DNA of 64,000 nt from Lophium mytilinum (GCA_010093605.1 MU004183.1:1178001-1242000), one strand, 5' to 3'. Counted from the stretch's first letter, positions 3,180 through 25,952 are shown. Program-made: numbers and translations. Notes: a model not told the origin generated them from the letters alone.

Positions 3180-4211
3180 ATCTATATCTTATCTAGATTT
3201 AGGGGGATACTAAAATTAATAAGTTAGACTGGCCGCTTATAGTGCTTCTACACCTCTTAATAGGCAGCCTACCCGTTGCACTCCTTATTTAAGATAGGGT
3301 GTGGTCCCTAGTATTCTTTTTTAAATAACGCTAAGGGCTAGATACTAAGTACAGCTATAGTATTCCTGAAGCCTTTAGTGAACCTAGATTTAAAGACTAC
3401 TAATAAAGCTTTAAGAGTTTAGAAACAGTTATTTTTAAGATCTTATAAAACTATTAATATTACTTTAGTCTATAGGCGTTTAGCTGGAAGTAAGAATCTT
3501 ATAAAAGGATATAATTTATCCTATAGCACCTTAGAGGATTCTAGTAGCGTTCCACCCTAATCGCGCTTTAAGTTTACTATCTCTTATAAAAAATTAAGTA
3601 ACATGCTAGTAAGGTAATCTACTACCTTGCACTAATTTTAAGTTTTCTAATAAATATTTGCCCTACCTTAATAGGCCTAAGGGCTTCTATAGCTATAAAA
3701 CCCTAAATTCTATATTTATAGAGCTATAGGTGGGCAAGATAGTAGAATATTACTAGCTAGGTAGTAACTACTAGGGGTTAGCTAATAAACCTTAGTAGTA
3801 CTTCTACAAATTATTTATAGTTTAAGGAGTATTTTATGTAGCTAAGAGTCCCTAGTAATAATTACTATTAAAATATTTACTAAAAGTAATATATCTAACT
3901 TCCAGCGGCATACTTATACTAGATACACTAGCTAATTCTAAAAGACTTAGATTAGTATAGTTTCTAGTTTCTAAAGTTTCTTTAGCAACTTAATGAAGAA
4001 AACACTAAATACTATTTAATATAAATTTATAAGTAGTTAAAATATTTTAGGGTTAGTAATCTAGATTTCTAGTCCTTGAAATTTTCTATCTAAAAATACT
4101 ATCTACTAGATAGAGAGATTAAGTATATAGCACAGCTATTATTATAATAATTTCCTACTATCTAATACTACTTCTACTAATACTTCTATTATAACTAATA
4201 TAGTATCTTTA

Positions 4212-5058
4212 GGGGAGCGCTACTGCCACGCCCCCTTTTATTAGCTACCACACCCCCTTTTGGCTACAGGCACGCCCCCCTTACGTCTGATCACTTCACC
4301 ACCTTCTAATTGGCTCGGATCACTGCTCCGGAGCCTCCGAGTGGCTCGCTTAGCTCGCGCGCAGTTTCTAAATGCTCTCTCCAAGTGCGGCGTGGCTACA
4401 AACAATCACATCCTTATCCTCTACTTCCACAATACACTCACCATGGCCCTCCAGCCACCTCCAGCACGGGCGTACAACTCTATTAAGGAAGCTGAGGAGG
4501 CGCTTACAGCGCACGCAAAGGCGCAGGGCTACGGAGCTCCGACGTTAGATGGCATTGTACGATCAGTATCTGGAGGGGTTAATGGATCAGGATAGCCAAG
4601 GAGGCGCGGCGGCGATGTAGGGGGGCCAGGTTTGATGCGGAGAGGCCGTAATAAGGTGAGGATTTGACTGTTTTGGCATGCTCATAGGCACGTAGGCACG
4701 TAGGTAGCATTACAACGGCCTATATACACTGTAGGAAACGGGAAGTATGCATAGTAAAACGGTTATGCTGTACAGCCTTGCCATAAGCAGCCTTACGTAC
4801 GGCCTCACGTACGGCCTCACGTGAGGCCTTACGTGTAGCTGGCCTATATATATAGCCTCACGGAAACGGTAAGAATGCACGATGAAATGGTGAGGCTGCA
4901 CAGCCTTCCCATGGAACACGGATGCGCGTGAGAATTGAGCGCCGGAGCTTCCTCCGAGCCCTCCGAGCCAATCAGAAGATCAGACGTAAGGGGGGCGTGC
5001 CTGTAGCCAAAAGGGGGTGTGGTAGCTGATAAAAGGGGGCGTAGCAGTAGCGCTCCCC
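4212..5058 (+). mobile_element. Non-autonomous Mutator-like (MULE) DNA transposon, internal-deletion derivative, 847 bp
   Basis: Long terminal inverted repeats (GGGGAGCGCTACTGC...CCTTACGTCTGATC, ~80 bp plus subterminal similarity). 8-bp direct repeat TATCTTTA at 4204-4211 and 5059-5066. The internal peptide MALQPPPARAYNSIKEAEEALTAHAKAQGYG resembles the N-terminus of fungal MULE/Hop transposases. Confidence 0.85.
4788..4835. repeat. Short 12-bp tandem repeat (GGCCTCACGTAC-like) with palindrome, inside the MULE
   Basis: 'cagccttacgtacggcctcacgtacggcctcacgtgaggccttacgtg' read directly. Confidence 0.8.
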
Positions 5059-5403
5059 TATCTTTAAACTTCTTAAAGTAATCTAATTTATTAATATAAG
5101 CTATTTTATTATTAGAAACTAAAGCTTTATATAATTTATCTAAAATACAAAGAAGCTTATTTTAGTATTATATAACTAAAGCAATACTAAGATACTCTTA
5201 ACTTTTATATAATGCACCTATACCCTTAGATAAAAGAAAGAATAGCTATAATAATAGCTAAATATATAATTAGAATAAATCGAGCACTTCCCGTAATTTA
5301 CTTAGGCTTATAGTAGATACTAGAGGTTAGTAAAATAGTTATTTAGTTTTAGTAAAATATTACTAAAAACGCGCTCCTTTATAAATGGCCTAGATATATA
5401 TAA

Positions 5404-5660
5404 TGTAACAATTATAATAGCATAAGCGTTATATCCTTACGCATAATAGGCTCAAAAGCCTTTAAACGGGACGAAACCGTGAGCGTTTGAACGTGATACA
5501 ATAAACGCTGGATAACGTTATAAGAACGTTAGAGAAACGTTTTATAATGCATTAAATGCTGTATATATACTCTGTTGCTGTTAATGTAGAATAGAACTCA
5601 AGTAATACAATTCCTATCTTTCTATCCATCTATTCTTATATTAACTCTATACCTTTGACA
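5404..5660 (+). mobile_element. Solo LTR (TG...CA), copy A
   Basis: Starts TGTAAC, ends TTTGACA; near-identical to the copies at 7042, 18730 and 21375. Flanks are TATAA (left) and TCTAT (right). Confidence 0.9.
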
Positions 5661-5787
5661 TCTATACTATATGTAGATGAAACTATTTAAATACCTAAAA
5701 GAAAAGGTAAAATCTTAAGATGATTTAGTATATTATTCTCTATAGAATACAGAGATGTAAAAGAATATATAGCTACTATAATTTACT

Positions 5788-6051
5788 ATATAAAGGTATG
5801 AATTAGTGTAAGAATAGATAGATAGATAGATAGATAGGAATTGTATTGCTTGAGTTCTATTCTATACTAATAGCAATAGAGTTGTATATGAACGCTAATT
5901 AATGCATTTTTAAACGCTTCTCTAATGTTCTTCTAACGTTATCTAACGTTTATTATACTACGTTTAGATGCTCATGGTTTTGTTCCCATTTTAAGGCTCT
6001 TAGGCATAGTATGCGTAAGGATATAACGCTTATACTATGATAAACCTTACA
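5788..6051 (-). mobile_element. LTR copy B (diverged subfamily)
   Basis: Reverse-complement match to copy A (ggaattgtattgcttgagttctattc...gcgtaaggatataacgcttat...ttaca). Left end and TSD not resolved. Confidence 0.8.
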
Positions 6052-6236
6052 CTAAAGAGTCTATATAGTACCTCTATTAGAGTTAATCTATTTCTAAGAC
6101 TTTAAGTACGTAACCCTCTGTATTTCTAGTATTAGAGTTTATACTAGAATATTTTAAAATTAAGTTAACGTTTACTAATAGGTTAGAAAACAAATAAAGG
6201 ATTTCTAGGTAGTAAAGTAGATATAATATATACACC

Positions 6237-6327
<91 letters not shown>

Positions 6328-6342
6328 CTATCTGTCTATCTA
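6237..6342. repeat. (TCTA)n microsatellite
   Basis: More than 20 near-perfect TCTA units read directly. Confidence 0.97.
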
Positions 6343-7041
6343 TTTATAAAAGTTTATTTATCTATTTACCCCTTTTTTAGGCTTAACTATTTACCTTCCT
6401 TGTATGTAATACTACTTCTATATACTAGTACTGTATAATAGCTAAAGTAAAAAAACCAGCCTAATCAGGCTTACTTTTACTTACTTGCAATACATCTTAT
6501 TTTAAATATATATTATTTTAGGCTTCTAGCTCTAACTACACCTATATTTCTATTTAAAATTACTCTATCTTCTATTTCTTATAAAATAGAATAATATAAA
6601 ATTAAATAGGGATATATTTTCTATCCTATATAGCACTAGTAATACTCTTTAGCTGCCCTAATATTACTGCGCTTATGCAAATAGTTCTAGAAGATAGTCC
6701 GCTTCTAGTTATTAAAGCACTTACTAAAGAGGGGATTTAGAAATGTCTAATAATATAAATTAATATTTTAGTAGAAGATAAGTACCTTCCTATAAGTATA
6801 TTAACTATACACCCTATTTCTAGTTTATTTAATAGAGTGGATATTATCTTTCTTTAGGCTAGCCTTATAATAAACTCCTTAAGTTAATAGGACTTATACT
6901 ATCTAGAGGAATTAGGAGGTTTTTAAACGTTATTATACCTAAAAATCTTACAATAATATACTAGAGAATTATAGTACCTATTAAGTATTCTAATATAGCT
7001 TAGCGTAACCTAGTAAAGAACGCTATATAATAGGTTTTATA

Positions 7042-7298
7042 TATTAAAGGTACAGAGTCAATGGGAGAATAGATACATAGATAGATAGGAATTATATTGC
7101 TTAAGTTCTATTCTACATTAACAGCAACGGAGTATATATACAGCATTTAATGCATTATAAAACATTTCTCTAACGTTCTTATAACGTTATCCAGCGTTCG
7201 TTGTATTACGTTTAAACGCTCACGGTTTTGTCCCGTTTGAAGGCTTTTAAGCCTATTATGCGTAAGGATATAACGCTTATGCTATTGTAATCTTTACA
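7042..7298 (-). mobile_element. Solo LTR copy C, inverted relative to A
   Basis: Reverse complement of copy A, with RIP-type transitions. Flanks are TTATA (left) and ATAGA (right). Confidence 0.9.
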
Positions 7299-7671
7299 AT
7301 AGACTGTATAAAAGATAAGTAACTAGTTCTAGTATTACGTTATATCCTTTAAACATTAATACTTAGATATAAAATTTTAAGCTTCTAGCTTATTTATATA
7401 TGGGGCTAACAAGGGAAAGGCAGAACTTACATACTAGTATTACTAGAGAAGCTAGTAATTATGGTAATAGAGAACCCCTTTACAGTTAAAACTAGTTAGA
7501 TTTGCGTCATGCGGCATTCTTAGGATTTGTGTGGTTTCTGCCCCAAAGAAATACTTAAGCTCATTATCATACTTCGACAACCTAGGGATATTGAGATTTG
7601 GAACAAGACGATGATAATAACAGGCCTGGATAAAGACCCTGATGCATTTTCCGATCACAGGCTACAGGTAA

Positions 7672-10064
7672 CTAGTCTAACATCGCAGTGTCTCTTCCGC
7701 CGTATGCCCCAGGCCCAAACTTCCATTTCACTAGGCCTCTATCTGTCCACGCCCAGAGCTCGTCCTCCTCTCGGAAAGCAAGCTCGAAAACCACCCCAGC
7801 CTCGGGCAGTTCGACCGGATGCAGCTCAACCATCTCTTGATCGAGTGGGTTGGACTGATAATAGCGATATCCACATCCCTCTAGATATGCATAGTCCCCT
7901 GGCACCGTTCCCTCTGGCAACGTACCGGGATCCAAGAAAGCTTTGCTGTCGATCGCCCATACGAGGACCCGTTTCCAGGATGTCATAGCAATGCGATGTG
8001 AATGGGGAGATACCGCCATTCGCACCCCAAGAGAGGACAGATTGAATAAATCTAGACCGACAAGTCTAGCAACGAAGACGTGGTGCAGATTCGAATAGTC
8101 TTTCTCGAGGTCGAATGTGTCGCAGCTAGAATCTGCACAGTAGTGGATTGCCTTGAGGAGGAACGCGCCTACGCGTCCTGGCGTAAGCCAACGAGGTGTG
8201 GTGCAATTGTGCTCCTCGCGTCTGAGCATGACTTCGAGAGCCGTATTCAGGCACGTTGGAGCACCATCATTGAGCTGCGGATCTGTGACACGATGGTGGT
8301 GATGGAAAGCAATGGCCTTTCCCAGAGAAGGCGAGCTGAATGCCTCGACGTCGTCCGGAAGGTAGTTATTGCGACGATGAATCTCTAGGCGACTCAGGAT
8401 GTTACTGACCGTCCACCGTGGAACGGGGAGGCAAGACTGGAAGAGGTGCAGTCTCTTGCCCCTGACTTGCATTGAGGAAATGATCTCATCTGCGTGGGAT
8501 TCGAGCAACGTCGAATTTGCCGGAGGTGGAACGTCTGATTCGATTAGCTTGAGACAAATCGAATTGGTGGGATATGCAGATCCTCCACAAACTGGTGGAC
8601 CGGCGACTATATGATAGGGAGCAGAGAGAGTGCTGGGAGGAATCTCATACCTTGATCGTAACGTTTACTGTACTTTGTTAATTTGTGCTTCGGATGTCGT
8701 CCTTCAAACCATCGAGTCAATACAAGCGATGTGCCAGATTTTGAGACCGCCACAGCCACCACATCGTTAGGCGTTTCGGATTCCATTTCCATCTCGAAAA
8801 CATCCAAAACTATAGGACCGAACTGTTCGTCCAACCTGAAAGTTACAAGTCGAATTGGTTCCGGAGAAGACGATGGACGCTCTTGAGCGCTACAGTGTGT
8901 TCCCCTCGTGGATTTGGATCTTTTGGAACGGTAAAGAATAGCTATCGTATGAGCGGAGTTTCCTTTAGAGCTCATCACGTCAGGTTCGCAGACCGCAATC
9001 TTGACAACTTCACAGTCAGGCCAGGCAAACGTCGAACCATGGCCCAGTGACAAGCCATACGGATCGATGATGTGAGAAAGCCTTGGACTGGCCTCGATGA
9101 TCCTATAGATTCGCACCACACCAGTATCTGCACAAACGTTTGCAAGCATGAGACCATGTCCGCTTTCTCCAGGAGAGGAAATGAGGGTGCTATTTTTCCA
9201 GTCGGTCTTCGTTGTAGGGAGGTAGGAGTAGACATCAGACAAGAAAGCGGCGCCACTGTGAAGATGTCGAGTGGCCCGTTGAGAGAAAAGTGTGACTAGG
9301 CTTGCTGCGTCTTGCTGGGAACTAGAAACGGGGTCTTGGAGACCGGGCATGCGTCTCAGCTGGTCCTTGAGAAGGGCTTTAGAGTTCAGAGCATGCTCGC
9401 GGAAGGTTTTGCAGGTCACGAGGCAGACGTAGAATGATTCGGCATCGAGTGTATGTAGTATTTGGCGGAGCAGCTCTGGGGGTAGATCGAGGAGCATCAT
9501 GCGCGGGCTCGAGGGGAAGTGAGAGCTTGCTGCCACACTCGGCGGTGATAGTCCACCTCCGGTGCGATCTACATGTATGGCATTACTGCCGATACGCTGC
9601 ACTTCTGCTTCAGAAGATCCAGAAGAACGCGATGACAAAGGAGATCGTGGGAGGGAGTCCGACATGAAATGAGGGTAGCGTCGCTCTGCCTCGTGAAAGA
9701 CGTCTGTACACTGCTGTTGAAACCGCTCAAGAGACAGTGACGCGAGCTTTTGTCGGGCCACGTTGCGCTTCTGCTGATAAGCGGGGTTCGGATGCAAGAA
9801 CCGTGGCACATTGGATGTCCTCGAGCTGCCTTTGGTCGACCACTGTTCCCGACGCAACGATTCGTCATATACATCAGTACTATGGTCCTGAAACTGAGCT
9901 TGGGGAAGTCGCGTGAGCCTGTCTTTCGTCCGGTGCGATCGACGCTGCGCGCTCTTCCGTTCTCGTAGGTGCGGGCCCAGGTATGCTTTCAGGAATGCGT
10001 AATGTTCCAAGAGTATGTCTTCCGGCCTAGGCGTCTTCCGGTTCATGGTTGTAGCGTCTGCCAT
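7672..10064 (-). CDS. F-box protein with N-terminal tandem Spa2/GIT homology (SHD) repeats, ~782 aa, 2 exons (10064-8651, 8606-7672)
   Basis: SHD-like motifs RLTRL..QFQDHSTDVYDESLRR and KRNVARQKLASL..ERFQQQCTDVFHEAERRYP; F-box LLDLPPELLRQILHTLD...LVTCKTF. A GTATGA...TAG intron (8650-8607) joins the two ORFs in frame. Confidence 0.8.
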
Positions 10065-12006
10065 GCTTGAGCATATGTCAAGTTCGATGTAGGTTCGGTC
10101 GGTTCTAGGTATGCTAGCTTGAATTAGTCAGTATATCTCGACGAAATAGAGATCTCGTCTCACAGGGAAGATTCGTAGCCCCGACACGGCAAGGCTGTGT
10201 GGGGCAGTCTCTCTGTTCGTTGCCCTGAACGTCCCCAGTAGCAGTGTCAGAGGAAAGAGTGGTGTCTAGGATGCTGTGGTGGGCGAAGTTTGCATTCAGT
10301 AACTGTTACTGTGATGGGGGCTGGAATAGAAGCCCTCTGAAGTGCCTAAGTTTATATATAGGCGGCCAGCCTTGCACACCGGACAATAGAGTGTGGATGC
10401 CTGCTCGGCCAGAGAGGAGCTGAGTCCAGCACGCGCCGTCGCCCTCAGGAGGTCAGCACTTAGGGGGAATGTACTATTGGGCGTAGACACATAGATTGGG
10501 ATGGACGCCGGCGGTGGTTTTTGCTGGTTCAATTGAGGTTCTTGTTGTTGAAGTGCTTCGGCGGGACGTTGACCTTGAAACGCACGTGCCGCCATGACGG
10601 ACACGATGAATCCAGGGTCGTGCCAAGACCTCGACATCCCGCATTTTCTGGATTATGGCAGAGGAAGCCAAAGCTGTCCACCTTTTGAGCGCGAATGTCA
10701 CATTGCTGGCCCTGGGCATTCGTATAGACCCAGTGCCAATTCTAGGCTCCTAGACATACTGCTCCGTTGGCCGCATCTTGGACTCTGTTATATATTTACC
10801 GTTTATGACCACCTTCACAAACGCATTCACTGTGCCACCATTCCTAATGGACGATTCAGCGACCTGCATGCCCCACACTGCCCACACTGGCGAGACCACG
10901 AGCGCGGGCATGGAATGGCCACACTTGCAGCTCGCCGGATTGGGGGTTTCTCATCGCCATCGCCAGCTCTTGCCCGTCGCCCTATGCATCCCGGCTCTAG
11001 CGTCGGGAAACAGATGGGGGCAGCCGTGTACAAAGGTAGATCGATAAGGGAGCCTTACAAATGCATGTGAGACGGCCATCGAATTGTCCTTGAGCTTCAC
11101 AGGCCAATGCCCGCGTCGACGTGCGTACCGACATCGCCGTTGACCCTCGTGCCTCCGACACCATCTCGCCCTCGCAGCAGCATCTCGTCGAGAACAGCTT
11201 TCGTCACACCGCAACCAGGACCGTGGTGTCCGCGGGGGGCTCGTTTCACGGGATGATAGCCGCAGAAGCGCGATGCTGCTCCGAGGGGTCCGCGCTGGCG
11301 GCGACGTTCCAGACTCGTGATCCAGCTTTGTTCCCAGCTAGTAGGCGTGACAGCAGCCGGCGGCCGTTGCATCGGGCTGGCGCGTGGTAATGGGTTCAGC
11401 GATGTCGCCAGGTACTTGAGGCCGATGATGCCACGAGGGCTGGGACAGGCGGTGTGACTCTGGACGACGACTTGGGACGAAGCTGAGGACGAAAGACTTT
11501 GGACGAAGGCCTCAGCTGGCACTTGGAACCTTAACCAGCCTCGCCGGCGCCCCTGCTCCCCGCTTGCTGCACCCTGCATGACCAGCCGTCACGAAAAACT
11601 TGCTGCTCGCCCATCGCGAGTGCCATCGGCCCACCATCCCCGTCGACTCGCTGGACAGCCTCCTGATCGAGCGTGCGCTGCTTCAATTGCGACTCTGGCT
11701 CCCCTCTGCGTGCTGCGCAGACCGTAATCCAGACGCCTCGCGTGCCCGGCCCCGCGACGGTTGCGCTGTTCTTTGATCATCGCCCCTGCTTCGCCGCGCG
11801 ACGTCATCGCAGCTGAGCGAGCACTCAACCTCACCTCGATCCACCGCCTCCTGGCCACCACCTCGCCCTCTTCGTCCTCCTCGTCCCCATCGCTACCTCG
11901 CCGCACCTCCCGTCTCATTGATGTCCCCTTCCGACATCACGCATTTCCAGCTACTGCTGGCTTTCCGGCACGCTGCCCACACTTTGCCGACACCCGCTTG
12001 AGGACA

Positions 12007-14641
12007 ATGTCGGCTACGCCCACCTTCTCGCCCCGTCTGCGCGATGCAGCGCCCCAGCTGCGCTCTAGTAGACCTACCGCTGCCCGTACCAGTACACCCG
12101 CATCTGTAGGCCAGGCATTACCGCCGATGCGGCCTCACGATAGTCGAACACCCGCCGTTATCCCTCCAACGCCCCAGACACCGAGCCCCAATTACTTCGG
12201 CCTGACGGTGGACCCCGCCGCCGACTGCTTCTCCTCGAGTGCTGCGCAGCACGTTCGAGGCAACTGGAGCCCTCCCACGTCCAACGTACGGTCCACTGTC
12301 GCCGCATCGCCCCGTGTGATCCCTGTTGATCAGAACCCCGAATTCGAGCAGTTTCGGCGGCAGTCTGAGAACAGCACGCAATTCAATCTGGGGCGTCTCT
12401 CCGATTTTAGTGTGGGCCAGCCGCCGACCTCGATACCCTCGAACCGTACAGCCTTCTTCGCGGCAGATCCCGCCCCGTCCCCGAAAACCGCTCCCCCAAC
12501 ATCGCCGAAAGCGTCGTCAAATACTGAAAGTGGGAGGGCAGTAGGCCACCTTGCGAAACCCCGGTCGCCCAAGCGTCTGCTCTCCTCCGATTCATCACTC
12601 TTCCCTGATCGCCCCCGACGCAACTCCCCCGCTAGTTTTACCGATGAATCGTCACGATCCGGAGAGGAAGCCGCTTTCTTAGACGCAGGCCAGCAAAGGC
12701 CGTCCCTCCCCGCGTCGAAATCTCACCTTGCCTTTTCTCTCTCGCACCACCGGGCCGAGACCCTGCCAGCTCATCCCGAGTCTGATGGCAAGGTCCAAGG
12801 TCCAGTCTTCGTGACCCCACAGCATGTAGTGAACCTTCTGGATTCGGCAGAAGACGAGATACTACTCCTAGATCTGCGTGTTTCTACGCAGTATGCACGC
12901 TCTCGGATTGTAGGAGCCTTGAGTCTCTGTATCCCGACCACTCTCCTCAAACGAGCCTCTTTCAACGTTCAGAAACTTGCCGAGACTTTTAAAGATTACG
13001 ACCACAGAGAAAAGTTTGAAAGGTGGAGGAGCAGCAAGTACATAATAGTTTACGACTCCGACTCCTCACAATTGAAAGACGCCACAGCATGTGTCAATAC
13101 TTTGAAGAAATTCACCAACGAGGACTGGAAGGGCAGCTCTTATATCATTCGGGGTGGCTTCTCCGACTTCTTCAAAAAGTTCCCATCACTTGTAGCAAGC
13201 GATTCGTCCCGTGGTTCGACGTCTTCGTCATCGCCTCTCAGTATAGACTCTAATGGGCCCGCCGTCGCGCCTGTCGTGGGAGGTTGCCCTCTGCCCGCTA
13301 CCCAGAACGCCGCGAATCCTTTCTTTGGAAACATCAGGCAGAACATGGATCTCATCGGCGGAGTGGGCCAGATGCCGATAAAGCACCCTGCGGCAATGAC
13401 CGCGCAAGTGGAAGACGAGTTGCCAAGTTGGTTGCGGAAGGCAGTGGACACACACGACAATGGGAAACTCGTATCGGACAAGTTCCTACAAATCGAAAAG
13501 AAAGAGCAGAAAAGAATGCAAGAGGCATTATCCAGCAAAGTAGTCTACGGTACTCCGACCCCTGACGTTGTTAGTGCCGTACGGATTGCGGGTATAGAGA
13601 AGGGGTCAAAAAACCGTTACAACAGCATATGGCCATATGAGCACTCCAGAGTCAAATTACAGGGTGTCTCCGAAGGTGCTTGTGATTATGTCAACGCAAA
13701 TCACGTCCAGGCCACTTGGACGAACAAGCGTTACATCGCAACACAAGGTCCCCTACCTACTACCTTCAATGTCAGCTCTGCCCATCCAACAGAAGATATA
13801 TGTACTAACTAGTGTTTAGGACTTCTGGAATGTCGTATGGCAGCAAGATGTCCGCGTCATTGTTATGCTCACAGCCGAGCAAGAGGGAGGCCAAGTCAAG
13901 GCGCATAATTATTGGGGAAGTAATCAATATGGCCATCTGCAATTGAAGTTCCTTGGCGAGCACCGAGCATCGCTAGAGCTTTCCAAGATTCTTCGGCATA
14001 AAGACAGACCTTCGCTGGGTCAGCGGCGTTCCACAAATCCGCCGCAATTGGGAAGAGCACCGAAAGAGTCACCGTCCCCAAGCTCCGACTCGCCTTATGT
14101 CATCATCCGCAAGTTTACGTTATCGCACGCTGACCATCCGTTTGCGCGCATGCGAGAGATTACCCAGTTGCAATATTCGAGCTGGCCTGACTTCGGCGCA
14201 CCCGCTCACCCAGCGCATCTCCTTGGTCTCATTGAGCAATGCGACGCGGTCGTACGTCAGGTTAATGGCGGGCAGCCTTCAGGCCCGGACCCTCCCAACA
14301 GCCGGCCCGTCCTTGTGCATTGTAGTGCAGGCTGCGGCCGGACCGGCACCTTTTGCACTGTCGACAGCGTCCTCGACATGCTGAGGCGTCAAAGGCAAGA
14401 CCGCAACACGCGCCAAGGCACCCCGATGGATGTAGACTCAACACAGAAGAGCAGTGACTTCCTTGGTGGTTCGGGAATCAAAAGCAACGAGGAGGTCATG
14501 GACGAGAGGGACCTTGTCGAAAAGACGGTCGAAGATTTCAGGCTTCAGCGCCTTAGCATGGTCCAGAGCTTACGGCAGTTCGTGTTATGCTATGAAAGCG
14601 TTCTAGAGTGGCTTGTTGAACAACAGCCGAAATCCGCATAG
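12007..14641 (+). CDS. Protein tyrosine phosphatase with rhodanese-like domain (Pyp1/Ptp2/3-type MAPK phosphatase)
   Basis: Rhodanese-like LLLDLRV...IPTTLLKR, plus KNRY, DYVNAN, YIATQGP, WPDFG, VHCSAGCGRTG and QSLRQF motifs. Intron 13771-13819. Confidence 0.93.
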
Positions 14642-15147
14642 GTATGCATTATGGTTTTCTCAACGGCGACAGGATATTTTCATGAAGGTATGATGGGCAT
14701 GGCATGGACGGTTACGTTGGCCAACTCGTATTGAGTTTTCCTCACTCATTGGGACGGCGTTATGTGCTTCAGAACGCACCCAGCATCTTATATATGAAGG
14801 AAGCGCGGTCTTACACCAGTGCGAGGGTCGGTGTGAGACATGAAATGCATAGAATATAGACCCGGTGTCTTTCTCAGCTATTCGCCCAAGCTGTCTTTAT
14901 GTGTAAAACACAAGACTCGACTACGATGGAATGAGTACTGCGCGATGGATTGAAGGTCTGAAACTGAACTACTTCTACACGGTAGGCGTGAAATGAGTGG
15001 CACACTCTTCAACCGCGCTCTGTCTTCCGTACACCTGTCCGCCACTGCTTGAAGTCCTGCAACGAGTTTTCATGTTGCCTAAAGTGAAGAGCTTCTATCT
15101 TGTGTAGTTAGACAACTTGTAGCAACCCAGGCAGTGGCATACACGCC

Positions 15148-15265
15148 ACGCGTACACATCCACCGCGAGTAGTTTGAAATAAGAGTGCCGCCTTCATTCT
15201 GCCCCGCGTGTTCTATTCTATCCATACTCAACTTCATGTGACCGCGCGTTAAGCGAAGACGCGCT
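15148..15265. promoter_or_regulatory. Cluster of MCB-like (ACGCGT/CGCG) elements upstream of Nse1
   Basis: ACGCGT at 15148-15153, with further CGCGT/ACGCG cores near 15205, 15245 and 15259. MCB sites typify G1/S replication and repair genes in ascomycetes. Confidence 0.4.
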
Positions 15266-15566
15266 CCGCCTCGCGAGGACCGCCGCCAACCCCTCCAGTA
15301 GGTATTCTACGTTCACAATTCACAGTCCACAATTCTACCGCCGAACAAGCAACTGGGTCTCCTACTCTACAAAAGAAGCTTTTCCCGACAAAACGGCTCT
15401 TATCACAATCCACCTGCCGACATCCATCGTTCCTCTAGTTGTCCGAGATCAAAGTGCTGCTCGTAGAACGGAAGGAAGGGAGAGTTCCCCACCCGCGCTC
15501 TACCTCAGCTTGTCAAGGTCCTCTCGCTCCACTGGTATCCTCTTTTCTTCAACAGTCTTGTTGGCC

Positions 15567-16673
15567 ATGGCCGACGTAGAGGACCCTTACAACCACAGCC
15601 ACCGCGCATTCCTACAAGCTTTCCTTGCGCATTCCATCCTCACTTTTGAGGAACTAAAACCTATCTTGGCCGCCATTCTATCGGTGCACGGCAAGTGAGA
15701 ATGTGGCTAAGATAGTTCGTCCTTCTGACAATTCTCTAGATGACCGCGAGGTTCTCCCCAACGACATCACCGAGCCTGATGTCTCGACCTACTTACACAC
15801 GCTGAACTCCAAGCTTGCCCCAGTCGACTACGAGATACGACCAGCGCGATCTCAAAAAGACCATTCCACCAGCTATGTGCTCGTGAATCTGACCTCAGAC
15901 GCTGTCACCCAGCTTGCAACAACACACTCGCCGGACGAAATCGCCTTCGTGAAGCGGGTCTTGGACGCCATGTTCGAGACACATAATACGCGCAATCATG
16001 AGGTTATGGCTATCACAAGAATGCAAGCGCGTCACTTGTCTAAAGCTCCTCGCACCTCCATTGCCAACGAAGACGGCGGAACGCAGACTCAGAGTGTAGC
16101 TGCGCAAGGCCTCACACTTCCGCAAGCAGAGAAAATGTTGGACGATATGGTCGAAGAAGGCTGGTTTGAAAATAGTGCGGCAGGCTACTATTCCCTTAGC
16201 GCGCGTGCGTTGGCGGAGCTCAGAGACTGGCTCAGGGAGACATACAACGAAATGCCTGGAGAGGGCGACGAGGATGAGACTGTGATTAGAATCAGGAACT
16301 GTGAGGCATGTACCGAGATTGTGACTATTGTAAGTGTTTTGCGAGTCTACCCAATACAGACTGTACTCTGTTCAACTTCGTATGGCCCGTTCTCCACGAT
16401 CGCTAACCTGCTGCTCACCAGGGTCAGCGCTGCTCAAACCATGCCTGCGCGTGCCGGCTTCACGACATCTGCACACAACGCCTGTTTAGATCACAGGCTG
16501 CGAACGCGCGGCGGTGTCCAAAGTGTAAGGAAGAATGGACGGGTAAGGACTTCGTGGGCGAGAAAGCTGCTAAACGAAATGGCGGCTCCCGTCAACACGG
16601 ATCCACGGCATCCTCGAGGCAAGTCACTCAGAATGGAGCGAGAAGGGACAGCAGCGAGGACGACGGGGAGTGA
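15567..16673 (+). CDS. NSE1: Nse1, non-SMC subunit of the Smc5/6 complex (3 exons)
   Basis: N-terminal YNHSHRAFLQAF, LVNLTSD..TQLAT.HSPDEIAFVKRVLDAMF, and a C-terminal RING-like CEAC...GQRC...C..RLHDIC...CPKCKEEW. Introns 15691-15739 (GC-AG) and 16330-16421. Confidence 0.9.
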
Positions 16674-17099
16674 TAGAAGCTGCGGCATGTGCGCTAAGCT
16701 TCCTATTAGGTGTAGTTTTACCCTGTTGGTACTGAATATCAAGTCTGCACCACCTGTCACAGGATGCGTTTAGATCTGATTAGAGAAAGACCTTTTAGCG
16801 TGCTTGTAGTTTCCTACTTAGCAAAAGGATTACCATGTTCTATATAGATATGAGTTTAAAGCGTGTAGGTGGATAAATGGAAGTTACACCACTCCAATGT
16901 GCACAACAGGTGATTTACAAGACGTTAAGATAAAGGATGGAGTGCAATTCTATACAGGACATGACAGGAACGTGCGCAGATAGGGGTACAGTAAGCTAGC
17001 TAGCTAGAACAGAACATGAGCCGTAAGCTAATACTGTGACAATCTCTTGCTAAAGACTTTATAGCTAATCTATCTTTTATTAGAATCTAAGTCCCTTCT

Positions 17100-19385
17100 A
17101 CTACACCATTAACCGCATTAGAACATTTCTCCTATTAAGTCGCGTTGCTATTTAAGAATATAAAGGCTAGCTAATCTAGACCTGGCTGCGGATCATTAAG
17201 TATTGAACATTAGGATTCAGCCTATTAGCCCTAAGCAGCAGATCGAATCTCTAGAAGTATTCGATCCACATCGCCGTTGCGCACAGATCGGTATATAACA
17301 GCAGAATGTCGCCTAAGGGTGAAGATTCAGCCAAAGAAATACAAGAAATAAATAACGTTTCCGGTTACGGTCACTGTGGCGGCTGAGTATGGAACATCAA
17401 AAATCACACCCATGAAAATCGAGATCACCAAAAGAAACAGGAACCACGCAATCGCTCTAGATGTCATAGGCGGAAGGTAAAAATTTCAACGGCTTTGAGG
17501 CGCTGGGAAGATACCAGAATTTGTCTTTTCGCGCATAGGATATCCCGCATTTTGTCGTTGGTTGCGGCAGCCTACCGAGCCTGTTGAACTTTCTTAGTTT
17601 CGTGGTAAAACAAGCTTTGGATTTGTGAAAGCTGAAGGTCATATGCTCGACCGACATCTTCGAGGCATGTAAGGTCTGAAACTATGCCAATTGGAGAAGT
17701 AGGCCTGATAATTGATTTGTTACAATTATAAGTAATTGGATTTGGCGCCGCACTGTTTGTGTTTTGCTGATCTTGAGCTAGGCTGCGAGTTTTAGAGTAT
17801 GTTTCCTATTAACAATAAGAACAGGAACAGAATTATAATTCATTGTCATAGAATATCTCTGCAGCTGCAAGTAACGGCAGTATAACGAGAAGCAGTAGAG
17901 TAATCTGGCCAAAACTCATTCCAGTCTATATGAAGAGTATTCGAAATGCTCCACCGGAAGTACGCCACCTGAGCAAGCCCGTAGGACACCATCAAGATAT
18001 TTTGAGGTAATAACGAAAGAAATAAGCCCTGGTAGAAGAGTGGGATTATGGATTCTACTGAGTTTTTCGAGCGCTATACATCGATATCGCGAAGATTCTT
18101 CGGTGCTGCTGGTCTCATCTCCAACATTGTGCCACTCCAGTCTTGTTATTTGAGCCTTCCTAAACCTGAATTTCGCTAGCATCCATATAAAACCGTGGAC
18201 ATCTATGAATTAGGGATATTCGCCAGCTGTCCAATACGACCGTTCAATTTTCTCGGCATAAATGAAAATAAGTAACACTATTAGTAGGATCCAGAAAAAA
18301 ACCATCAGTCCAGAAGAACTTTTGCAGAATTCAACTCCGGGTTTGCCGTAGAACAAGCACTGAACCAGCATCCACGGTTCCAAAGGTCACAGTAGCATGG
18401 TGATAATGAAGCAGAATACAAGTACACCGAGAATCATAGCCATACCAAAGACACGCCAATTGCGAATTTTGCCATGGGAGATGAAGTAGTCCTGCAGACA
18501 ATCAAGTATTGCAAGGTGGGTGGTTGCTGAAAACCACACCAGGCTCAATGTAATCCTCCACTCCTGCACTGAGAGTGTACAAGGATTGGCCACGGCTGCA
18601 AGCAAACAGCCAGGCCCGTAACAAGTTGCTGATCGCTGAGCACAAGGATAAAGCGTAGCGTGGCCTCCTGCTGTTTCTCCCGAGGCAACCTTTGTTTTGT
18701 TGTGCAGGATGTTTTTTAGATGCAAGTAGTGTAAGCTTTACAATAGCATAAGCGTTATATCCTTACGTATAATAGGCTTAAAAGCCTTTTAATGGGACGA
18801 AACTGTAAGCGTTTAAACATGATACAATAAACGTTAGATAATACTATAAGAATATTAGAGGTATATTCTATAATACATTAAATACTATATATATACTCTA
18901 TTACTATTAATATAGAATAGAACTTAAGTAATAAAATTCCTATCTATCTATCTAACTATTCTTATATTAACTCTATACCTTTAATAAGTAGGGCTAGTTA
19001 TAGACTTTAAAGACTCCTTTAGAAAAAACTAAGTAGATAGATTAGACTATCTTAGAATCCTTAACTATTAAGATACTATTTAGGGAATAAGTTAGATAGG
19101 TATTTATATATAACTATAAATACAGTTATAATTACTAAAAGGAGAAAATAGACTAGAACCTATATATTTTATAGGGAGGATATTTAAAGGGTATACTAAG
19201 CGCGATAAAAGAAACTAAAAATAATATATAACTATAGCATAAGAAATGTAATTATTAACTAACATTCTAGAGGTAGAAAATTAGCAGGTTAAAAAATTAA
19301 TCTTAGCTTACTCTATTCTAATAATATCTATACTAACTTATACTAGACTCTATATAGAATAGTTAAGGCTTCTACTATATTCTAT
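17100..19385 (-). pseudogene. Pseudogene of a fungal multi-pass membrane hypothetical-protein family, split by a solo LTR
   Basis: Family motifs LSDQQLVTGLA / (frameshift) / LLAAVANPCTLSVQEWRITLSLVWFSATTHLAILDCLQDYF...RNWRV, and MSFGQI..LL..LPLLAAAEIFYD, with stops and frameshifts. A RIP-degraded 5' part (LxxS...DIxxI, intron, VLVYFLL) lies beyond the LTR. The 3' boundary is approximate. Confidence 0.7.
18730..18986 (+). mobile_element. Solo LTR with 5-bp TSD AGTAG
   Basis: TGTAAG...CCTTTAATA (RIP form of CCTTTGACA). AGTAG at 18725-18729 and 18987-18991. Confidence 0.92.
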
Positions 19386-20576
19386 TATTATAGCTTAGGT
19401 TTATATTTCTATTTAATACCACCATTAAGACTTAGAAAGTTACTAATAATAAGAGATAATATTTTGTAATCTATAGTAGAAAGGATATAGTAATTAGAAA
19501 GAGATAAGGGTAAGTTTTACTAAGTTAACTAAGGCTACTATAGGCGTAGCAGCAATATACTAGGTAGCTATAGTAAGGCTAAAACCTTTATTATTTTAAA
19601 TTATAAGATAATATAGTAGTATAGGCTAGGAAGTTATAATAGTAAGGAAATATACTTACTACCCTTAGAAGAGAGAGAGTAGAGAAGGATAGTCTTAAAT
19701 ATATTATATAAAAAATAAGACTATAGGTACTATACTATATAGAGTAGACTTTATAAGAAGGAAAGATAATAAATAATAAAGTACTTACCTCTATAATTAA
19801 AAAGAGGCCTAATTACGCACTATATACCGCTTATATATCTATACTAATATACTTTACTTTAATAAACCTAAGTATATAGAGGGTATTAGGAAAAAAGAGC
19901 TAGATATTTTATAGTATAAGTAGAGTAATAGAACCTTTATAATTAAAAAGAGTACTTAATTATATAATAATGCTAACCGGTAACTAAGAATTTCTAACTA
20001 CTAATAATTATTAGGAATTTAAGGGGCTAAGCTACTAGTCTAAGTTCTTTTAAGCGGAACTAGATTTACTTATAAAATACTTTACTTATTCTTACTAATA
20101 GGTAATTTCTAGATGCCGGTGGATAGTGTTAGCTCTATTCTAGGCTAATATAAAAATAATTTATAGTAGACCTAGGTAAAAGTCTAGTTAAAATATATTT
20201 AGACTAGATATAGATATAATTATACTAACTCTACTATAGGTATCTAATATTAAGTATATATATTTATTAGGCTAAAACAGAAATAGAATTTAGATAGAAG
20301 AGTATTAATTATATTATTAATCTATAAATAACTCTAATACTAGATAGGCCTTCTAAAGTAGGTAAAAACTCTAGTATTAATAATACTTATTAGATACCTA
20401 GCCTAAAACTAAGTTCTTCTTAGCTTTTTAATATAAGCTTAGAATATCTATACTCTAGTTAATTTATAGCGTAGGCTTAAACTATAAGTAGCTTACTTCC
20501 TTCTCTAAATTACAAAGGAAACTATCTATATATATATACTAGAATAATATATCTATAAAAATAAATTTATATCTAG

Positions 20577-20631
20577 TACTAAAGATATAAAGTTAGTATA
20601 AGTATAGATAAATAGATAGATAGATAGATAT

Positions 20632-20667
<36 letters not shown>

Positions 20668-20960
20668 GTAGGTAGATAGGTAGATAGGTAGATAGGTAGA
20701 TAGGTAGATAGGTAGATAGGTAGATAGGTAGATAGATAGATAGATAGAAAGGTAGAAGAAGCCTTTATTAAAGTATCTTTTAATATTTTAGTATATATAG
20801 CTTCTTAGCGCCTTCTAAAGCTTATAATCTCTATAAATATTATTTAATAAAAGCTATTTAATCTAGTTAAACCTATTCTAGCTTTTATATTTCCTTTTAT
20901 TAGCTTTTAATAGCGTATTCTACCCTTATAGCTACCTATATGCATATTATAATATATAGC
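20577..20960 (-). repeat. Compound (GATA)n/(GGTAGATA)n microsatellite (~20605-20748), probably within a highly diverged LTR relative
   Basis: Microsatellite read directly. It is preceded by 'tactaaagatataaagttagtataag', which resembles the reverse-complement LTR end 'tgtcaaaggtatagagttaatataag'. Confidence 0.6.
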
Positions 20961-21193
20961 TAAAAGTTATAATTATACTCTAGGCTTATTAGACTCTATA
21001 TACCCCTACTTTACTATATAGCTAATATTAACCCTACCTATTATTTTATAGTATTTTTAACTATATATTTCCTTTCCTTTATATATATACCTATTCTATC
21101 TTTAATCTTTAAATTAGCTTTAAGTGGGCTTAGATTACTACTTTAGCGCTTAACTCTTATATATATCTATACTATATAAAAAGGCTATACAGC

Positions 21194-21215
21194 CTCTCTC
21201 TCTCTCTCTCTCTCT
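21194..21215. repeat. (CT)n microsatellite
   Basis: About 11 CT units read directly. Confidence 0.9.
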
Positions 21216-21374
21216 ATTTTCTATAAGAGTTTAGTCTATATATAGCTGGTTCTAAAGCTATTTATATAGCTATACTAAAGGCTATATATAAGGTAAGGCT
21301 TTAGAGTATAGTATAGAAAGGCTATTATAAAAAGGCTATTATATTATTACCTATATGCCTATAGGCCTATAAGC

Positions 21375-21639
21375 TATAAGGTTTACAATAGTATAAAAGC
21401 TATATCCTTACGCATAATAGGCTTAAAAGCCTTTAAACAGGACAAAACTATAAGCGTTTAAACGTAATATAATAAATATTAGATAATTTTACTAAAATAT
21501 TAGAGAAACATTTTATAATGCATTAAATGCTGTATATATACTCTGTTGCTGTTAATGTAGAATAGAACTCAAGCAATATAATTCCTATCTATCTATCTAT
21601 CTATCCATCTATTCTCCCATTAACTCTATACCTTTGACA
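21375..21639 (+). mobile_element. Solo LTR with 5-bp TSD TAAGC
   Basis: TATAAG (RIP form of TGTAAG)...CCTTTGACA. TAAGC at 21370-21374 and 21640-21644. Confidence 0.92.
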
Positions 21640-22250
21640 TAAGCATGCTAAAACCGTTATGCCCACACTTTAATTTAGCTCCTTTACAGTACTCCTAACG
21701 CTTCTCCATTGCCCCTGCCTCTACCAAGCATGAGAATAGAGCACCAAATGAAGTTCCGGGCCTTTCTGGCTAATCAGGAAATCAGACGGGAGGGGGGTGT
21801 GCGTGCAGAGATGACGGGTTGTGCGTGCAAAGGAAAGGGGGTTGTGTAGTTGACGCCCTTGTTTTACTACTTCTGTTACTATATTGAGGTAAGTTTATGT
21901 CCTCTATAGAAGTTGCATGCGAAACATCTTTATACAAGTGCTGTGTAGTGATCTTTCGCGCTCTTACTTAGCAGACAGGGTGGGGGACGGACAGACTATA
22001 GGGGAGGGTTATAGGATGAAAGCTTCAGAGCTTAGCTCATGCTTCTCCTCCTTGAAATTCTACTAAAAGACGGAAATCTCGGTTTGTAAATACAGTAAAG
22101 GAATCTCGTCCTTGATTCATATATAACCTCGCTGGCTGGGCCGTTACTCACAACCTCCCATTGTTCACAAGACCCAGAACACCCCTAATTCCACGCCAAT
22201 GCTATGCAAAATCCACGCTCTCATAGACCACTCATAAAGGCTGGGTACAG

Positions 22251-23241
22251 CTACCACATGTCCCCCATTGCTTCCAAGTCGGCCGCAAAATCGGCCGCAA
22301 ACTCGTCCTCCTGTGGTGTCGATAGCTTCGGAGGAGCTTTCGAAGGCATGCCCGAAGAAGTCCTCGTCGCCGAGACAGCCTCTATCGTCATAGCGTCCTC
22401 CTCCGCGAGCAGAGCGTCAAGTTCATCATCTTGGGGGGTCATGGGTCTCGCGGGTCGTGAGGCGACCTTCGGAGTATCCTTCGACATAGATTCTGCTTCC
22501 ATCATTATGGCGTCTTCCTCAGCAAGCAGTGCATCCAGCTCATCCTGATCGGGTACATCATCTCTTTCTGGGGTCGCACGCCTTTCCGATGAAATTATGG
22601 CCCCCTCACTTCCTAGATTTCGGTCTCTTGACACTGCAGCTAAGTTCGCCTCTGGTAGATTTTGGTTGGATGATTGATTTCTAGGCAAATCATATTCGAT
22701 GTCTTCATCTGACTCGGCAGTAGCCTTAGGCTTTCCCTCCTCTATCCAGACTTTCCGCATCATTTGTATTTGCTTCGAATGTCCAAGCTTCTCAATTATC
22801 GTGAGAGCATCGGCGAATTTTGCGCGAGGATAGAGATCGTCCAGCCAAAGCTGATACGTATTGAGGAGGCGAGCGACATCTGAATACTGCGGAACACATT
22901 AGCATATTACAGTGACTGGTGTCGTCGCATCATGTACGCACTTCGTGACCTTTCCCCTTGAACTTGAGGCGATCTTTGGATATCCTCCTTAGTTTGGGTA
23001 TGCCCGCAGGGGAAAGCAGCAATGGAGCGTCCAGTTTCGGAATTGGCTGTCTCTTCTTAACGATCTTGATCTCCTCATCAATCGCTGCATCCGCAGACGC
23101 TGCGTTTCCGTTGCCCGCTGTATCTCTTCGCGAAGCCTGAGCTGCAGCGTTCGCGTCGAGCTCCCGAAATGCTGCCTCCATAGCAGGATCATCGAGAAAC
23201 AAGTCGTCGAAATCATCTACAGGGGGGCTCTGTGGAGCCAT
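22251..23241 (-). CDS. CSM3: Replication fork protection complex subunit Csm3/Swi3 (Tipin), 2 exons
   Basis: Swi3 domain: PKLD..LLSPAGIPKLR...LKFKGKGHE|YSDVARLLNTYQLWLDDLYPRAKFAD...IEKLGHSKQ..MMRKVWI. Intron ~22941-22887. Confidence 0.9.
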
Positions 23242-23654
23242 TTTTACAACTCGTTCAACCTGTCTTTAGTTGCGTTGAAAGGGACTTCTTGGTGAGGACT
23301 TCGTTCGTCATTAATCGCATGTAAACTTTGGTGTTGGCGGAAACGCGCTGCGGAGGAAAGCGCGACTGACGCTAACACTAAAGCGAGCTAGCGTGTAACC
23401 TTAATCGGAACTTCCTTCACCTTGCTGCATAGAAAAGTTGTAGCAAACCAACAGACCGAACTACGACAAAACCCAATTCCTTCCTACCACGAGACCGATC
23501 GATCACCCATAGACCCCCCAATTACATTGTTCTCCTTTCCTACCTAGCATTTCTTCAACCGACCAGCGGCTGCGCCCGGTCATGCGCATCAATAGCTTCC
23601 CGTGATTTCACAGCAACCCCAGCAATTCCAGCATCATTTCCTCAACGCAGCGAC

Positions 23655-25952
23655 ATGGCGGTTCGCGACATCGAGCCAGCGCTCGCTATGACAGGTCGGC
23701 TACAGGGCCTTCTTAAGCGTGCGTCTCAAATCAAAGCGTCGACTGCCATCGACCCACCGCTGCAAGTATCGGAGCTCAGCAGTGAAGATGAAATGCTCCT
23801 GGGCCCTATTACTGGAGACGCGGAACTGCATAAATCAATAGTCGATGCAGCTGCACGGAATATATTCTACAACATATTGGTAATTATGACTACCCTGTAG
23901 GTCTTCCACCGCTGACCGTATCCAAGGCAACTACTTCTATCGAAGATCCATCTTTTGTTCAAGTCTGGAATCTTCTTGACATACTACAGTATTGCGGAGA
24001 CAAAGGTACGCTTGACTTTAGTTTGTCTGTCTTACCGCGTTTGAACACCTGGTTCTTTCCCTACGCAACTCTTCCTATATGATTGGCGTTTCCTCGTGTC
24101 TACATTCCTTGTTCTCGTCTCTTCTGAAAAGGAGAGTGCTTTTTGTTTAGAGCAACCGCCATCATCCCTGATTTGTCCCCTTTCCCGACCCTGTTCTTTC
24201 ACGTCGCTGTCGCAAACTTACGGACCCAAATGCTGACGTTGTCTAGACCAGTGTTACTCAGGCTTAGTGTTTCTCCTTGTCGAGGAACTTCTCGACAGTC
24301 AGAGTATAGACGGCTGTAGGATCATATTCGACTTTTTGGAGTCGAGAAGAGAAGCTCTTATTGCTGTAGGTAATCTAGTGAATTGCAGTATTCTGGGTCC
24401 TTGCTAATGTGGGGTGGACAGAACGGCTCCAAGAATAAGGATTTGGTGATCCTACGATCATGCAACGAACTTCTCCGGCGTCTCTCGCGCGCAGAAGATG
24501 CCGTCTTCTGTGGAAGAGTATACATTTTCCTTTTCCAGAGCTTCCCTCTCGGCGACAAGAGTTCGGTAAACTTGCGAGGAGAGTTCCATGTCGAGAATGT
24601 GACCACATTCGAAGATTCCGTACAGGTGGCCGAAGACCCTCAAGATAGGATGGAAATTGATGCAGATCCAACGGAGGAGACGGCGCAGGCGGACGATAGT
24701 GCAAAGCCCGAGCAAGACGCCGTGAAGACAGCAGAGTCAGATGCAAGCCAAAAAGCTGGCCAAAAGACACTGACTATCGACACTCTATACCCGATATTCT
24801 GGTCATTACAGCAGGCCTTCTCAAATCCGATCAACCTATTCAACGAGGACCACTTCGCAGAATTCAAAAAAGGGTTGGAAGCTACTTTGACCAAATTCAG
24901 AGATGTTCCAAAAGTTATCCAAGCTACAAACGCTGAGAGCAGCCGTGGCCTCAAGCGAAAGCTGGAGGAGACGTATGATGAGTTTGCCAGTACTTTCAAC
25001 CCCAAATACCTCACCAGCCGTGATCTCTTCAAGCTCGAGGTAAGAAGCCCACGCCGGCACAACTTCAGCATGATGCTAAGCGCGTATAGTTGAGCGACCT
25101 AGCGTTTCAGAGGCACATCCTGGTCCAGGCCCTGATCCTGATCGACTTTATTTTGTCGTTGACGGAGAAGTCCAAGAAGAAGCCGTATCAGACCAACGCA
25201 CAAAAAGCACTGCAGTACAACTTCACTCTTAGTGAGCAAGATGTGAGTCCCGTTATCCTTTCTGACTGTGCTACAAGACGTTGGGCTGACGGCAGGGACA
25301 GGCGGAGTGGGCATCGGGCATCAAGAACACCATCGCAAATTACCTGCAGGATGCACCGGATGGCAAGTTCTACTACCGCATGGTCGACACGGTCCTGTCA
25401 CGAGATAAGAACTGGGTACGGTGGAAGATGGAGAGCTGTCCACCCATCATCCGTGACAGGGTCTCCACAAAGGACTCCCAGGACGCGAAATCCGGGGCGC
25501 GGAGAGCTTACGCTAGCAAGCGGATCAAGGTCAATGCTATGGGATTGGACTTGACCTTCCTCTCCGACACGGATGGCTCCAGTGGCCTCGAGCGGCTGAA
25601 GGATGGAGAGAGGTGAGTTTCTCCGCTCGCCCGAAACGCATGTCACGTTGAGTGCTCACGAGAGATCAGATACGTCGTACCCGGAGCGGAGTCATTTGCA
25701 AAGGAGGTGGCCGGCATCGACTTGGACCTGGAGATGGCCATGACGGAGCAGGAAAAGGAAAACCTGGGGGCGGCCAAGGCTAGCCAGACGTGGAGAGCGC
25801 TTCGCGTCGCGTCCAAGGACAACCTGAGCCGGTTCGACCAGCTCGAGGGCAGTTCGCTGGAGAAGCTCTTTCAGCCGGATGCGGCCGAGCAGACAGCAGA
25901 AGAGCATGCACCGGAGGGCAGGGATGCAGAGCCGGACGACGTCAAGGCATAG
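23655..25952 (+). CDS. THOC1: THO complex subunit 1 (THOC1/Hpr1), multi-exon
   Basis: LVILRSCNELLRRLSRAEDAVFCGRVYIFLFQSFPLGDKSSVNLRGEF, LYPIFWSLQ, FNPKYLTSRDLF, FQRHILVQALI and RMVDTVLSRDKNWVRWK motifs. About 6 GT-AG introns. Confidence 0.9.

Follow-up and report, generated by a model that had tools for sequence, protein, structure and literature searches.

In a stretch of 64,000 nucleotides from Lophium mytilinum (GCA_010093605.1 MU004183.1:1178001-1242000), hereafter called the window, a gene for a putative membrane protein was found to be cut by a solo long terminal repeat (LTR1), and its 5′ half appears to lie, heavily degraded, within an AT-rich island that reaches from LTR1 to a second solo LTR of the same orientation (LTR2). 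The window consists of fungal DNA with three small AT-rich islands amid GC-normal genes, and the island under study occupies 2.9 kb, from 18730 to ~21640, with LTR1 and LTR2 at its ends. The changes seen in it fit repeat-induced point mutation (RIP), since they comprise C:G to T:A transitions, an excess of TpA and a loss of CpA/TpG next to duplicated DNA that can serve as the trigger. The erased gene half most likely, at about an even chance, results from RIP acting on single-copy DNA that links the two direct LTRs. The features on which this account is based are the following, with positions counted from the first letter of the window:

17250..18729, minus strand: 3′ part of the membrane-protein pseudogene, located by tblastn with 151 family proteins; composite RIP index negative
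18725..18729 (left copy) and 18987..18991 (right copy): AGTAG target-site duplication of LTR1
18730..18986, plus strand: LTR1, solo LTR of 257 bp (nhmmer E 8.8e-72; boundaries from a six-copy alignment), with a TG start and a TA end that is a RIP-altered CA
18992..19159, minus strand: RIP-degraded exon 2 of the same gene, assigned by RIP-aware profile alignment, with its conserved part at 19159-19067
19160..19311, minus strand: 152-nt remnant of an intron (GTAAGC...TAG), placed where the family has its conserved phase-0 intron
19312..19385, minus strand: RIP-degraded exon 1, with a supported ...DI.G.G end and a start codon read by eye only
19386..21369, no strand: RIP-saturated DNA upstream of the gene, essentially single copy by RIP indices and contig cover
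21370..21374 (left copy) and 21640..21644 (right copy): TAAGC target-site duplication of LTR2
21375..21639, plus strand: LTR2, solo LTR of 265 bp (nhmmer E 1e-75), with a TA start that is a RIP-altered TG, and a CA end

The gene was recognised by its 3′ part, to the left of LTR1. In tblastn searches with all 151 retrieved family proteins, every match fell within 17485-18844 on the minus strand, the family proteins aligning over 18745-17485. The best relative, P0011 (591 aa), aligned over its residues 108-498, with high-scoring segment pairs down to E 3e-47, three frame changes and 6 in-frame stops within the aligned pieces. This agrees with the preliminary description of the locus, which had read a legible frame with a few stops and frameshifts, and the motifs quoted there are present. 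Additionally, one minus-strand open reading frame (ORF) piece led to a further relative, P0001 (401 aa, E 1e-18), and a C-terminal hydrophobic ORF was read by eye at 17327-17485. The search found no close orthologue, the best relatives being 44-61% identical in the aligned pieces. The left half of the gene is a decayed pseudogene without a RIP signature.

A full HMMER search with P0001 returned 1526 representatives at E up to 1e-3, and neither the pseudogene pieces nor four family proteins had a match in Pfam. The family is a large, fungal one of putative membrane proteins, their membrane nature having been judged by eye from hydrophobic stretches. Its invariant motifs are SD.QL.TG and W..H, which the pseudogene shows as the LSDQQLVTG and WFS.TTHLA types, and complete N-termini share a Cys-rich start, a ...DI.G.G motif, a hydrophobic helix and then YLSDSLP..YLN. 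Of 80 family loci from metagenome contigs (L001-L080), 66 extend over the N-terminus. Exactly at profile positions 27/28, 26 of the 66 have a match split by 40-91 nt starting with GT and ending with AG; 21 loci were continuous, and the other 19 first match at positions 16-28, no exon having been recognised farther upstream. The 26/66 split loci thus share a conserved phase-0 intron that follows the N-terminal DI.G.G.

The strongest evidence for the erased half comes from exon 2, rather than from the exon-1 stretch first quoted in the preliminary description. A profile was built from 30 complete family N-termini, and segments were scored by log-odds, with the profile columns emitting codons that then pass a RIP channel, in which C becomes T and G becomes A at rate r, and with the trinucleotide composition of RIPped islands as the null, while 156 tile-frames from RIPped DNA served as controls. 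It was verified that 19159-19067, on the minus strand, aligns ungapped to profile columns 28-58 and, at r=0.7, reaches 51.0 half-bits versus a control mean of 21.3 (sd 3.3, max 29.8, n=156). The score at r=0.5 was 58.1, versus a control maximum of 52.1, and with r near 0 no signal for exon 2 was obtained (19.0 versus a control mean of 24.2). In a codon-level maximum-likelihood (ML) estimate of the RIP conversion rate, the exon 2 segment peaked at r=0.5, with a gain of 16.7 log-likelihood units over r near 0, and the 45 codons examined to the left of LTR1 peaked at the lower bound, ~0. Already 15 of the 31 exon 2 codons encode a top family residue, and one or two transitions separate most of the remainder from such a residue. 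In the segment, ...YLSNLFPK*YLN takes the place of the ...YLSDSLP..YLN of the family, the internal stop being among the transition-reachable codons. The same segment was recovered by a plain six-frame hmmsearch of the 64-kb window as the sole domain besides the main one (4.1 bits, independent E-value 0.015), and its match to profile positions 28-59 is collinear with the main match at 18742-18605 (positions 88-132, 36.9 bits). The profile matches both sides of LTR1 in order, as expected from the claim that this LTR interrupts the gene. An earlier score, which took the best reachable residue per codon, had given 61-93 in every frame and likewise in a transversion control, and was replaced as uninformative. 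The recovery of exon 2 of the same gene to the right of LTR1 indicates, at the level of sequence, that the AT-rich island is partly a host gene.

Upstream of exon 2, the evidence depends on the splice donor. Exon 2 starts at profile column 28 directly after an AG (19161-19160), and a match to columns 19-27 ends at GTAAGC (19311). On its own, the exon-1 piece 19367-19311 was at chance level, 36/92 and 56/92 control tiles scoring as high. When it was anchored at profile column 27 without regard to the donor, 29 of 180 controls were as high. However, anchored exon 1 combined with a donor-like motif within one base scored 18.8 versus a control maximum of 16.5, a score that none of the 180 controls reached, and with gaps allowed 1 of 174 controls was as high; the control tiles overlap, so that their effective number is below 180 and 174. 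Exon 1 ends in two codon bases where the family intron is of phase 0, one base being short before the donor, which is the missing base that the preliminary description had noticed. The intron remnant, at 152 nt, is longer than the 40-91 nt of the relatives. Reading by eye suggests a start codon, ATG turned into ATA at 19385-19383, and a Cys-rich start; statistically this block does not stand out, 69 of 230 controls scoring as high. As for the minus-strand codons quoted in the preliminary description, all are present as written, and the post-intron part (19159-19067) stands far above chance, but the exon-1 stretch taken alone does not. The broader claim made there, that the N-terminus of the family lies to the right of LTR1, is borne out by the exon 2 score, by exon 1 with its donor and by the conserved intron position.

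The RIP signature of the island is deep and sharply delimited. The interior (18992-21370) has a GC content of 0.251, a TpA/ApT ratio of 1.63 and a (CA+TG)/(AC+GT) ratio of 0.13, versus TpA/ApT 0.83 and (CA+TG)/(AC+GT) 1.37 in the left 1-kb flank and 0.89 and 1.21 in the right one, so that heavy RIP is indeed confined between the direct LTRs, as had been proposed. In sliding windows, the composite RIP index exceeded 1.3 over 18751-21500 and was negative on either side. The left border is a step: CA+TG dinucleotides number 16 over the 100 bp that lead up to LTR1, 8 over the first 100 bp inside it and only 0-1 per 100 bp beyond. At the right border, where the AT-rich zone had been said to end at the second solo LTR, the signal fades within LTR2 (4, 6 and then 10 CA+TG per 100 bp) and is gone by ~21740. 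With ancestral C/G states inferred from the six LTR copies of the window, 42 of 93 informative C/G sites were mutated in LTR1 and 40 of 96 in LTR2, only 5 of 25 in the 3′ third of LTR2. Among the other copies, three had 23-31 of 93-95 sites mutated, and the copy at 3178 had 48 of 99. The sequence context of the LTR1 mutations favoured CpA (15/20) and CpG (11/18) versus CpT (6/28) and CpC (3/13).

The boundaries of LTR1 and LTR2 were established by aligning both with four copies from the other two islands. In this six-copy alignment the homology begins at TGTAAG and stops at CCTTTGACA or the version of it that RIP has altered, with unrelated flanks beyond; the alignment and nhmmer place LTR1 at 18730-18986, with AGTAG on both sides, exactly as the preliminary description had it. 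LTR1 and LTR2 are direct repeats with 82% identity across 252 nt, and since each carries its own, differing 5-bp duplication, they are independent solo LTRs, not the two ends of one element. An nhmmer profile found six full copies in the window plus two 3′-end fragments of ~45 nt each, and the less mutated copies keep TG...CA termini; no full-length parent element with the same LTRs is present within the window. A relaxed self-BLAST had extended the LTR homology up to 19157 or 19805, and this extension was rejected as an AT-rich artefact because the flanks are unrelated in the six-copy alignment.

The LTR family also allows some observations on the other two islands, at 1800-4200 and 5050-7500. 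The RIP-type composition there reaches 0.2-1.1 kb past the outermost LTR, and the LTR copies retain more CpA/TpG than the DNA around them. In the second of these islands, the plus-strand LTR at 5404-5660 has the 5-bp flanks TATAA and TCTAT, and the minus-strand LTR at 7043-7298, read in its own orientation, has TCTAT and TATAA. These swapped flanks (5399-5665 versus 7038-7303) read as the signature of an inversion of ~1.4 kb between inverted solo LTRs, probably by LTR-LTR recombination.

Copy number was assessed from the contigs of two sequencing runs (X1 and X2) of one sample at a likeness of at least 80%. The runs contain 94-96% of the sampled words of 16500-22500, and the sample may be the window's own source. 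Depth on contigs cannot be equated with copy number; more weight is given here to how many distinct contigs there are. The flanks have depths of 130-168 (X1) and 154-159 (X2). A single contig spans 18958-20597 with 0 differences, at a depth of 66 in X1 and 155.8 in X2, and a second one spans 20759/20841-21428. Over the LTR bins, in turn, the depths sum to 3318-5176 (X1) and 8352-13540 (X2), with at most 53 contigs carrying another letter at one LTR position. Compared with the window, the LTR copies of run X1 differ at 105 places, of which 80 are transitions, and the window has A/T where the others have G/C in 55. Apart from one patch of 170 nt, no relative of the interior with at least 80% identity was found among the contigs of the sample, and when the interior was compared with the rest of the window with transitions collapsed, only a (TAGA)n microsatellite was in common. 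At this likeness, therefore, 18987-20570 is not multicopy, a point on which the preliminary description had made its reading depend: it lies in one contig at flank-level depth in X2, with extra cover only over the patch. Two further features were recorded in this part of the island:

19689..19858, no strand: 170-nt patch of which the sample contains 1-2 more copies at ~85% identity (25 differences, 2 gaps)
20577..20756, minus strand: 48 nt resembling the LTR 3′ end plus a (TAGA/TAGG)n array (nhmmer E 0.0013; inverted repeat I2, 85%)

The first of these may be a small dispersed repeat. In the second, the (TAGA)n/(TAGG)n array comprises ~150 nt and is an expansion of a short (CTAT)n run present in every LTR copy. 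A complete third, inverted LTR at 20577-20953 was considered and rejected: one test was marginal (79 versus a null maximum of 74), and in the transition-collapsed test the LTR body was absent, 13-43 of 78 null tiles scoring as high, so that only the 48-nt end stands. The assignment to the gene ends at 19.4 kb and does not extend to the 2 kb to the right of it, up to 21.37 kb. Taken together, these results support the reading given in the preliminary description, in which RIP passed through single-copy DNA lying between linked repeats and the island is partly an erased host gene.

The anatomy is plain: a minus-strand gene of the family, situated between core genes, was interrupted ~60 codons into its exon 2 by the insertion of an LTR retrotransposon of which LTR1 is now left, and a second insertion of the same family and orientation, 2.4 kb upstream of the gene, left solo LTR2. 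From this anatomy we infer the following mechanism and order of events. With dozens of copies in their family, LTR1 and LTR2 are both targets of RIP. LTR1, the interior and LTR2 would then form a repeat-linker-repeat unit in which, during sexual cycles, C:G to T:A mutations would strike the repeats and the whole single-copy linker. After many cycles the linker would be saturated, with about half of the ancestral G/C and nearly all CpA/TpG lost, and the DNA outside the two LTRs would be untouched. The promoter, exon 1, the intron and the start of exon 2 would have been erased in this way, and the 3′ part of the gene would have decayed by ordinary mutation only. A comparable process has been demonstrated in Neurospora crassa, where the single-copy linker next to an 802-bp direct repeat is mutated only in constructs that carry both copies of the repeat (10.1101/115501). 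In the same system, RID acts mainly on the repeats, and the heterochromatin branch of DIM-5, HP1 and DIM-2 acts mainly on the linker, to most of whose mutations DIM-2 and DIM-5 contribute (10.1101/115501; a similar construct in PMC11969663).

Several observations weigh against RIP of the linker as the cause. The linker, with a (CA+TG)/(AC+GT) ratio of 0.13, is depleted at least as deeply as LTR1 (0.38) and LTR2 (0.90), although part of this difference is due to the LTR's own composition, and a Neurospora wild-type cross gave the opposite balance, with 524 mutations in a 600-bp linker versus ~3160 in the 802-bp repeats (10.1101/115501). The repeats of ~260 bp and the linker of 2.4 kb lie outside the sizes of the Neurospora constructs compared. 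LTR edges are not general RIP borders in this genome, because RIP-type composition overruns the outermost LTRs in other islands, and the LTRs of the other two islands are less mutated than their surroundings. Copies below 80% identity, for example RIP-diverged ones, would also escape the contig comparison. A transient tandem duplication would account, without any spreading, for the borders at the outer LTR edges, the uniform saturation of 2.4 kb and an interior mutated at least as much as the LTRs: unequal LTR exchange would produce LTR-interior-LTR-interior-LTR, the 2.65-kb unit would be RIPped as a repeat, and the duplication would later collapse. Two direct LTRs at a distance of 2.6 kb can undergo such an exchange, tandem duplications are often lost before meiosis in Neurospora, and borders and saturation are explained equally well as by linker RIP. 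However, this route needs two extra events, there is no trace of a second unit, 18958-20597 being found in one contig at single-copy depth, and the backward contig joints link different LTR positions with foreign letters, resembling other LTR copies and not a tandem junction. On balance we consider the duplication unlikely.

The island could also be older than its LTRs, if its right interior were an ancient RIPped repeat that had leaked into the 5′ end of the gene and the LTRs had been inserted later, so that the position of the borders would be due to target preference or chance. The higher CpA/TpG content of the LTRs of the other two islands, as if they had been inserted into already RIPped DNA, is in line with this, as are the little-mutated 3′ third of LTR2 (5/25 sites) and the 19.4-21.37 kb region, which is without identified origin and contains the small dispersed repeat and the LTR-end fragment. 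Nevertheless, once LTR1 is taken away, the host gene jumps from 16 to 0-1 CA+TG per 100 bp within a few bases, where leakage should fade, and both borders coincide with the outer LTR edges. Furthermore, LTR1 (42/93) and LTR2 (40/96) are among the most mutated copies, versus 23-31 sites in three others, and the interior has no relative of at least 80% identity except the 170-nt patch. An older island is therefore regarded as rather improbable. Leakage could also have come symmetrically from the two LTRs, or from full-length elements once present at both sites, and met mid-way, the outer flanks being kept clean by selection; RIP overrun into adjacent single-copy genes is documented (PMC3105345), and the right flank belongs to a core gene, the Swi3/Csm3 homologue at 22.25-23.27 kb. 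The left flank, in contrast, is a dead gene with no selective protection, and yet it shows no RIP (ML rate ~0), so that selection cannot explain either this clean flank or the step at LTR1, which makes symmetric leakage very improbable.

Around the island, the neighbouring genes at 11728-16773 and 22251-25093 are core genes, encoding a tyrosine phosphatase with a rhodanese domain, Nse1, the Swi3/Csm3 homologue to which the right flank of the island belongs, and THO complex subunit 1 (THO1). The island is a small lesion within gene-rich DNA. A stretch at 16750-17250, at and beyond the 3′ end of the pseudogene and 1.5 kb from LTR1, has a GC content of 0.39 and a mildly raised TpA/ApT of 1.30.

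RIP is usually taken to mark the bodies of transposons, and islands rich in AT are masked as repeats; here, part of such an island is a host gene, with statistics attached to that assignment, and two small remnants of repeats set the limits of the mutated zone. For annotation, RIP-aware searches are advisable before AT islands are called transposon relics. The locus would also be a concrete case in which solo LTRs can destroy neighbouring single-copy DNA and spare core genes 0.6-2 kb off. It could serve as a natural counterpart to the constructs with which the RID and DIM-2 branches have been dissected, at repeat and linker lengths beyond those of the constructs compared. More generally, a pair of solo LTRs of ~260 bp might act as a "RIP bracket", in which heterochromatin-type RIP saturates a 2.4-kb linker, no less deeply than the repeats, and stops no more than ~100 bp from their outer edges, and such pairs might be a general route of erasure, an idea that is put forward tentatively and that we hold to be possible but doubtful. 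If true, pairs of solo LTRs would bring about the precise erasure of intervening single-copy genes and promoters in gene-rich euchromatin. To our knowledge, RIP of linkers has so far been shown mainly with laboratory constructs. A limited search of titles and abstracts for solo LTR, RIP and pseudogene combined returned no such locus, and no claim is made that none has been reported.

Among known systems, the disruption of a gene by insertion followed by solo-LTR formation is matched here by TG..CA termini, 5-bp target duplications, the lack of an internal region and a multi-copy family, and in this respect the present locus shows no difference that is remarkable in itself. RIP leakage into single-copy genes within AT-rich blocks occurs in Leptosphaeria maculans and other Dothideomycetes. 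For L. maculans, RIP overrun into adjacent single-copy genes is the accepted explanation of mutated effector genes (Rouxel et al. 2011, PMC3105345), and the likeness to the present locus lies in a single-copy host gene that carries RIP mutations beside RIPped transposon remnants. However, the blocks described there are large isochores of nested elements, whose genes are often functional and selected, whereas the present island measures 2.9 kb, lies among core genes, has two solo LTRs as its trigger, contains a dead gene and ends in step-like borders. The closest system is the repeat-linker-repeat arrangement of N. crassa (10.1101/115501, Gladyshev and Kleckner; PMC11969663, Nucleic Acids Res 2025), which shares with this locus direct repeats, C-to-T changes in the unique DNA between them and an outside that is largely spared. 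In those constructs the mutation of unique DNA depends on the repeats, a dependence that by analogy may hold at the present locus as well. The constructs compared have 802-bp repeats and a linker of 0.2-0.7 kb, whereas the natural locus has repeats of ~260 bp and a linker of 2.4 kb. Moreover, unlike in the constructs, the present linker is saturated, with CpA/TpG at least as depleted as in the repeats, presumably after many cycles, and dozens of further, unlinked copies exist as partners of the LTRs. The locus is a clean natural instance of a known process, not a new kind of system.

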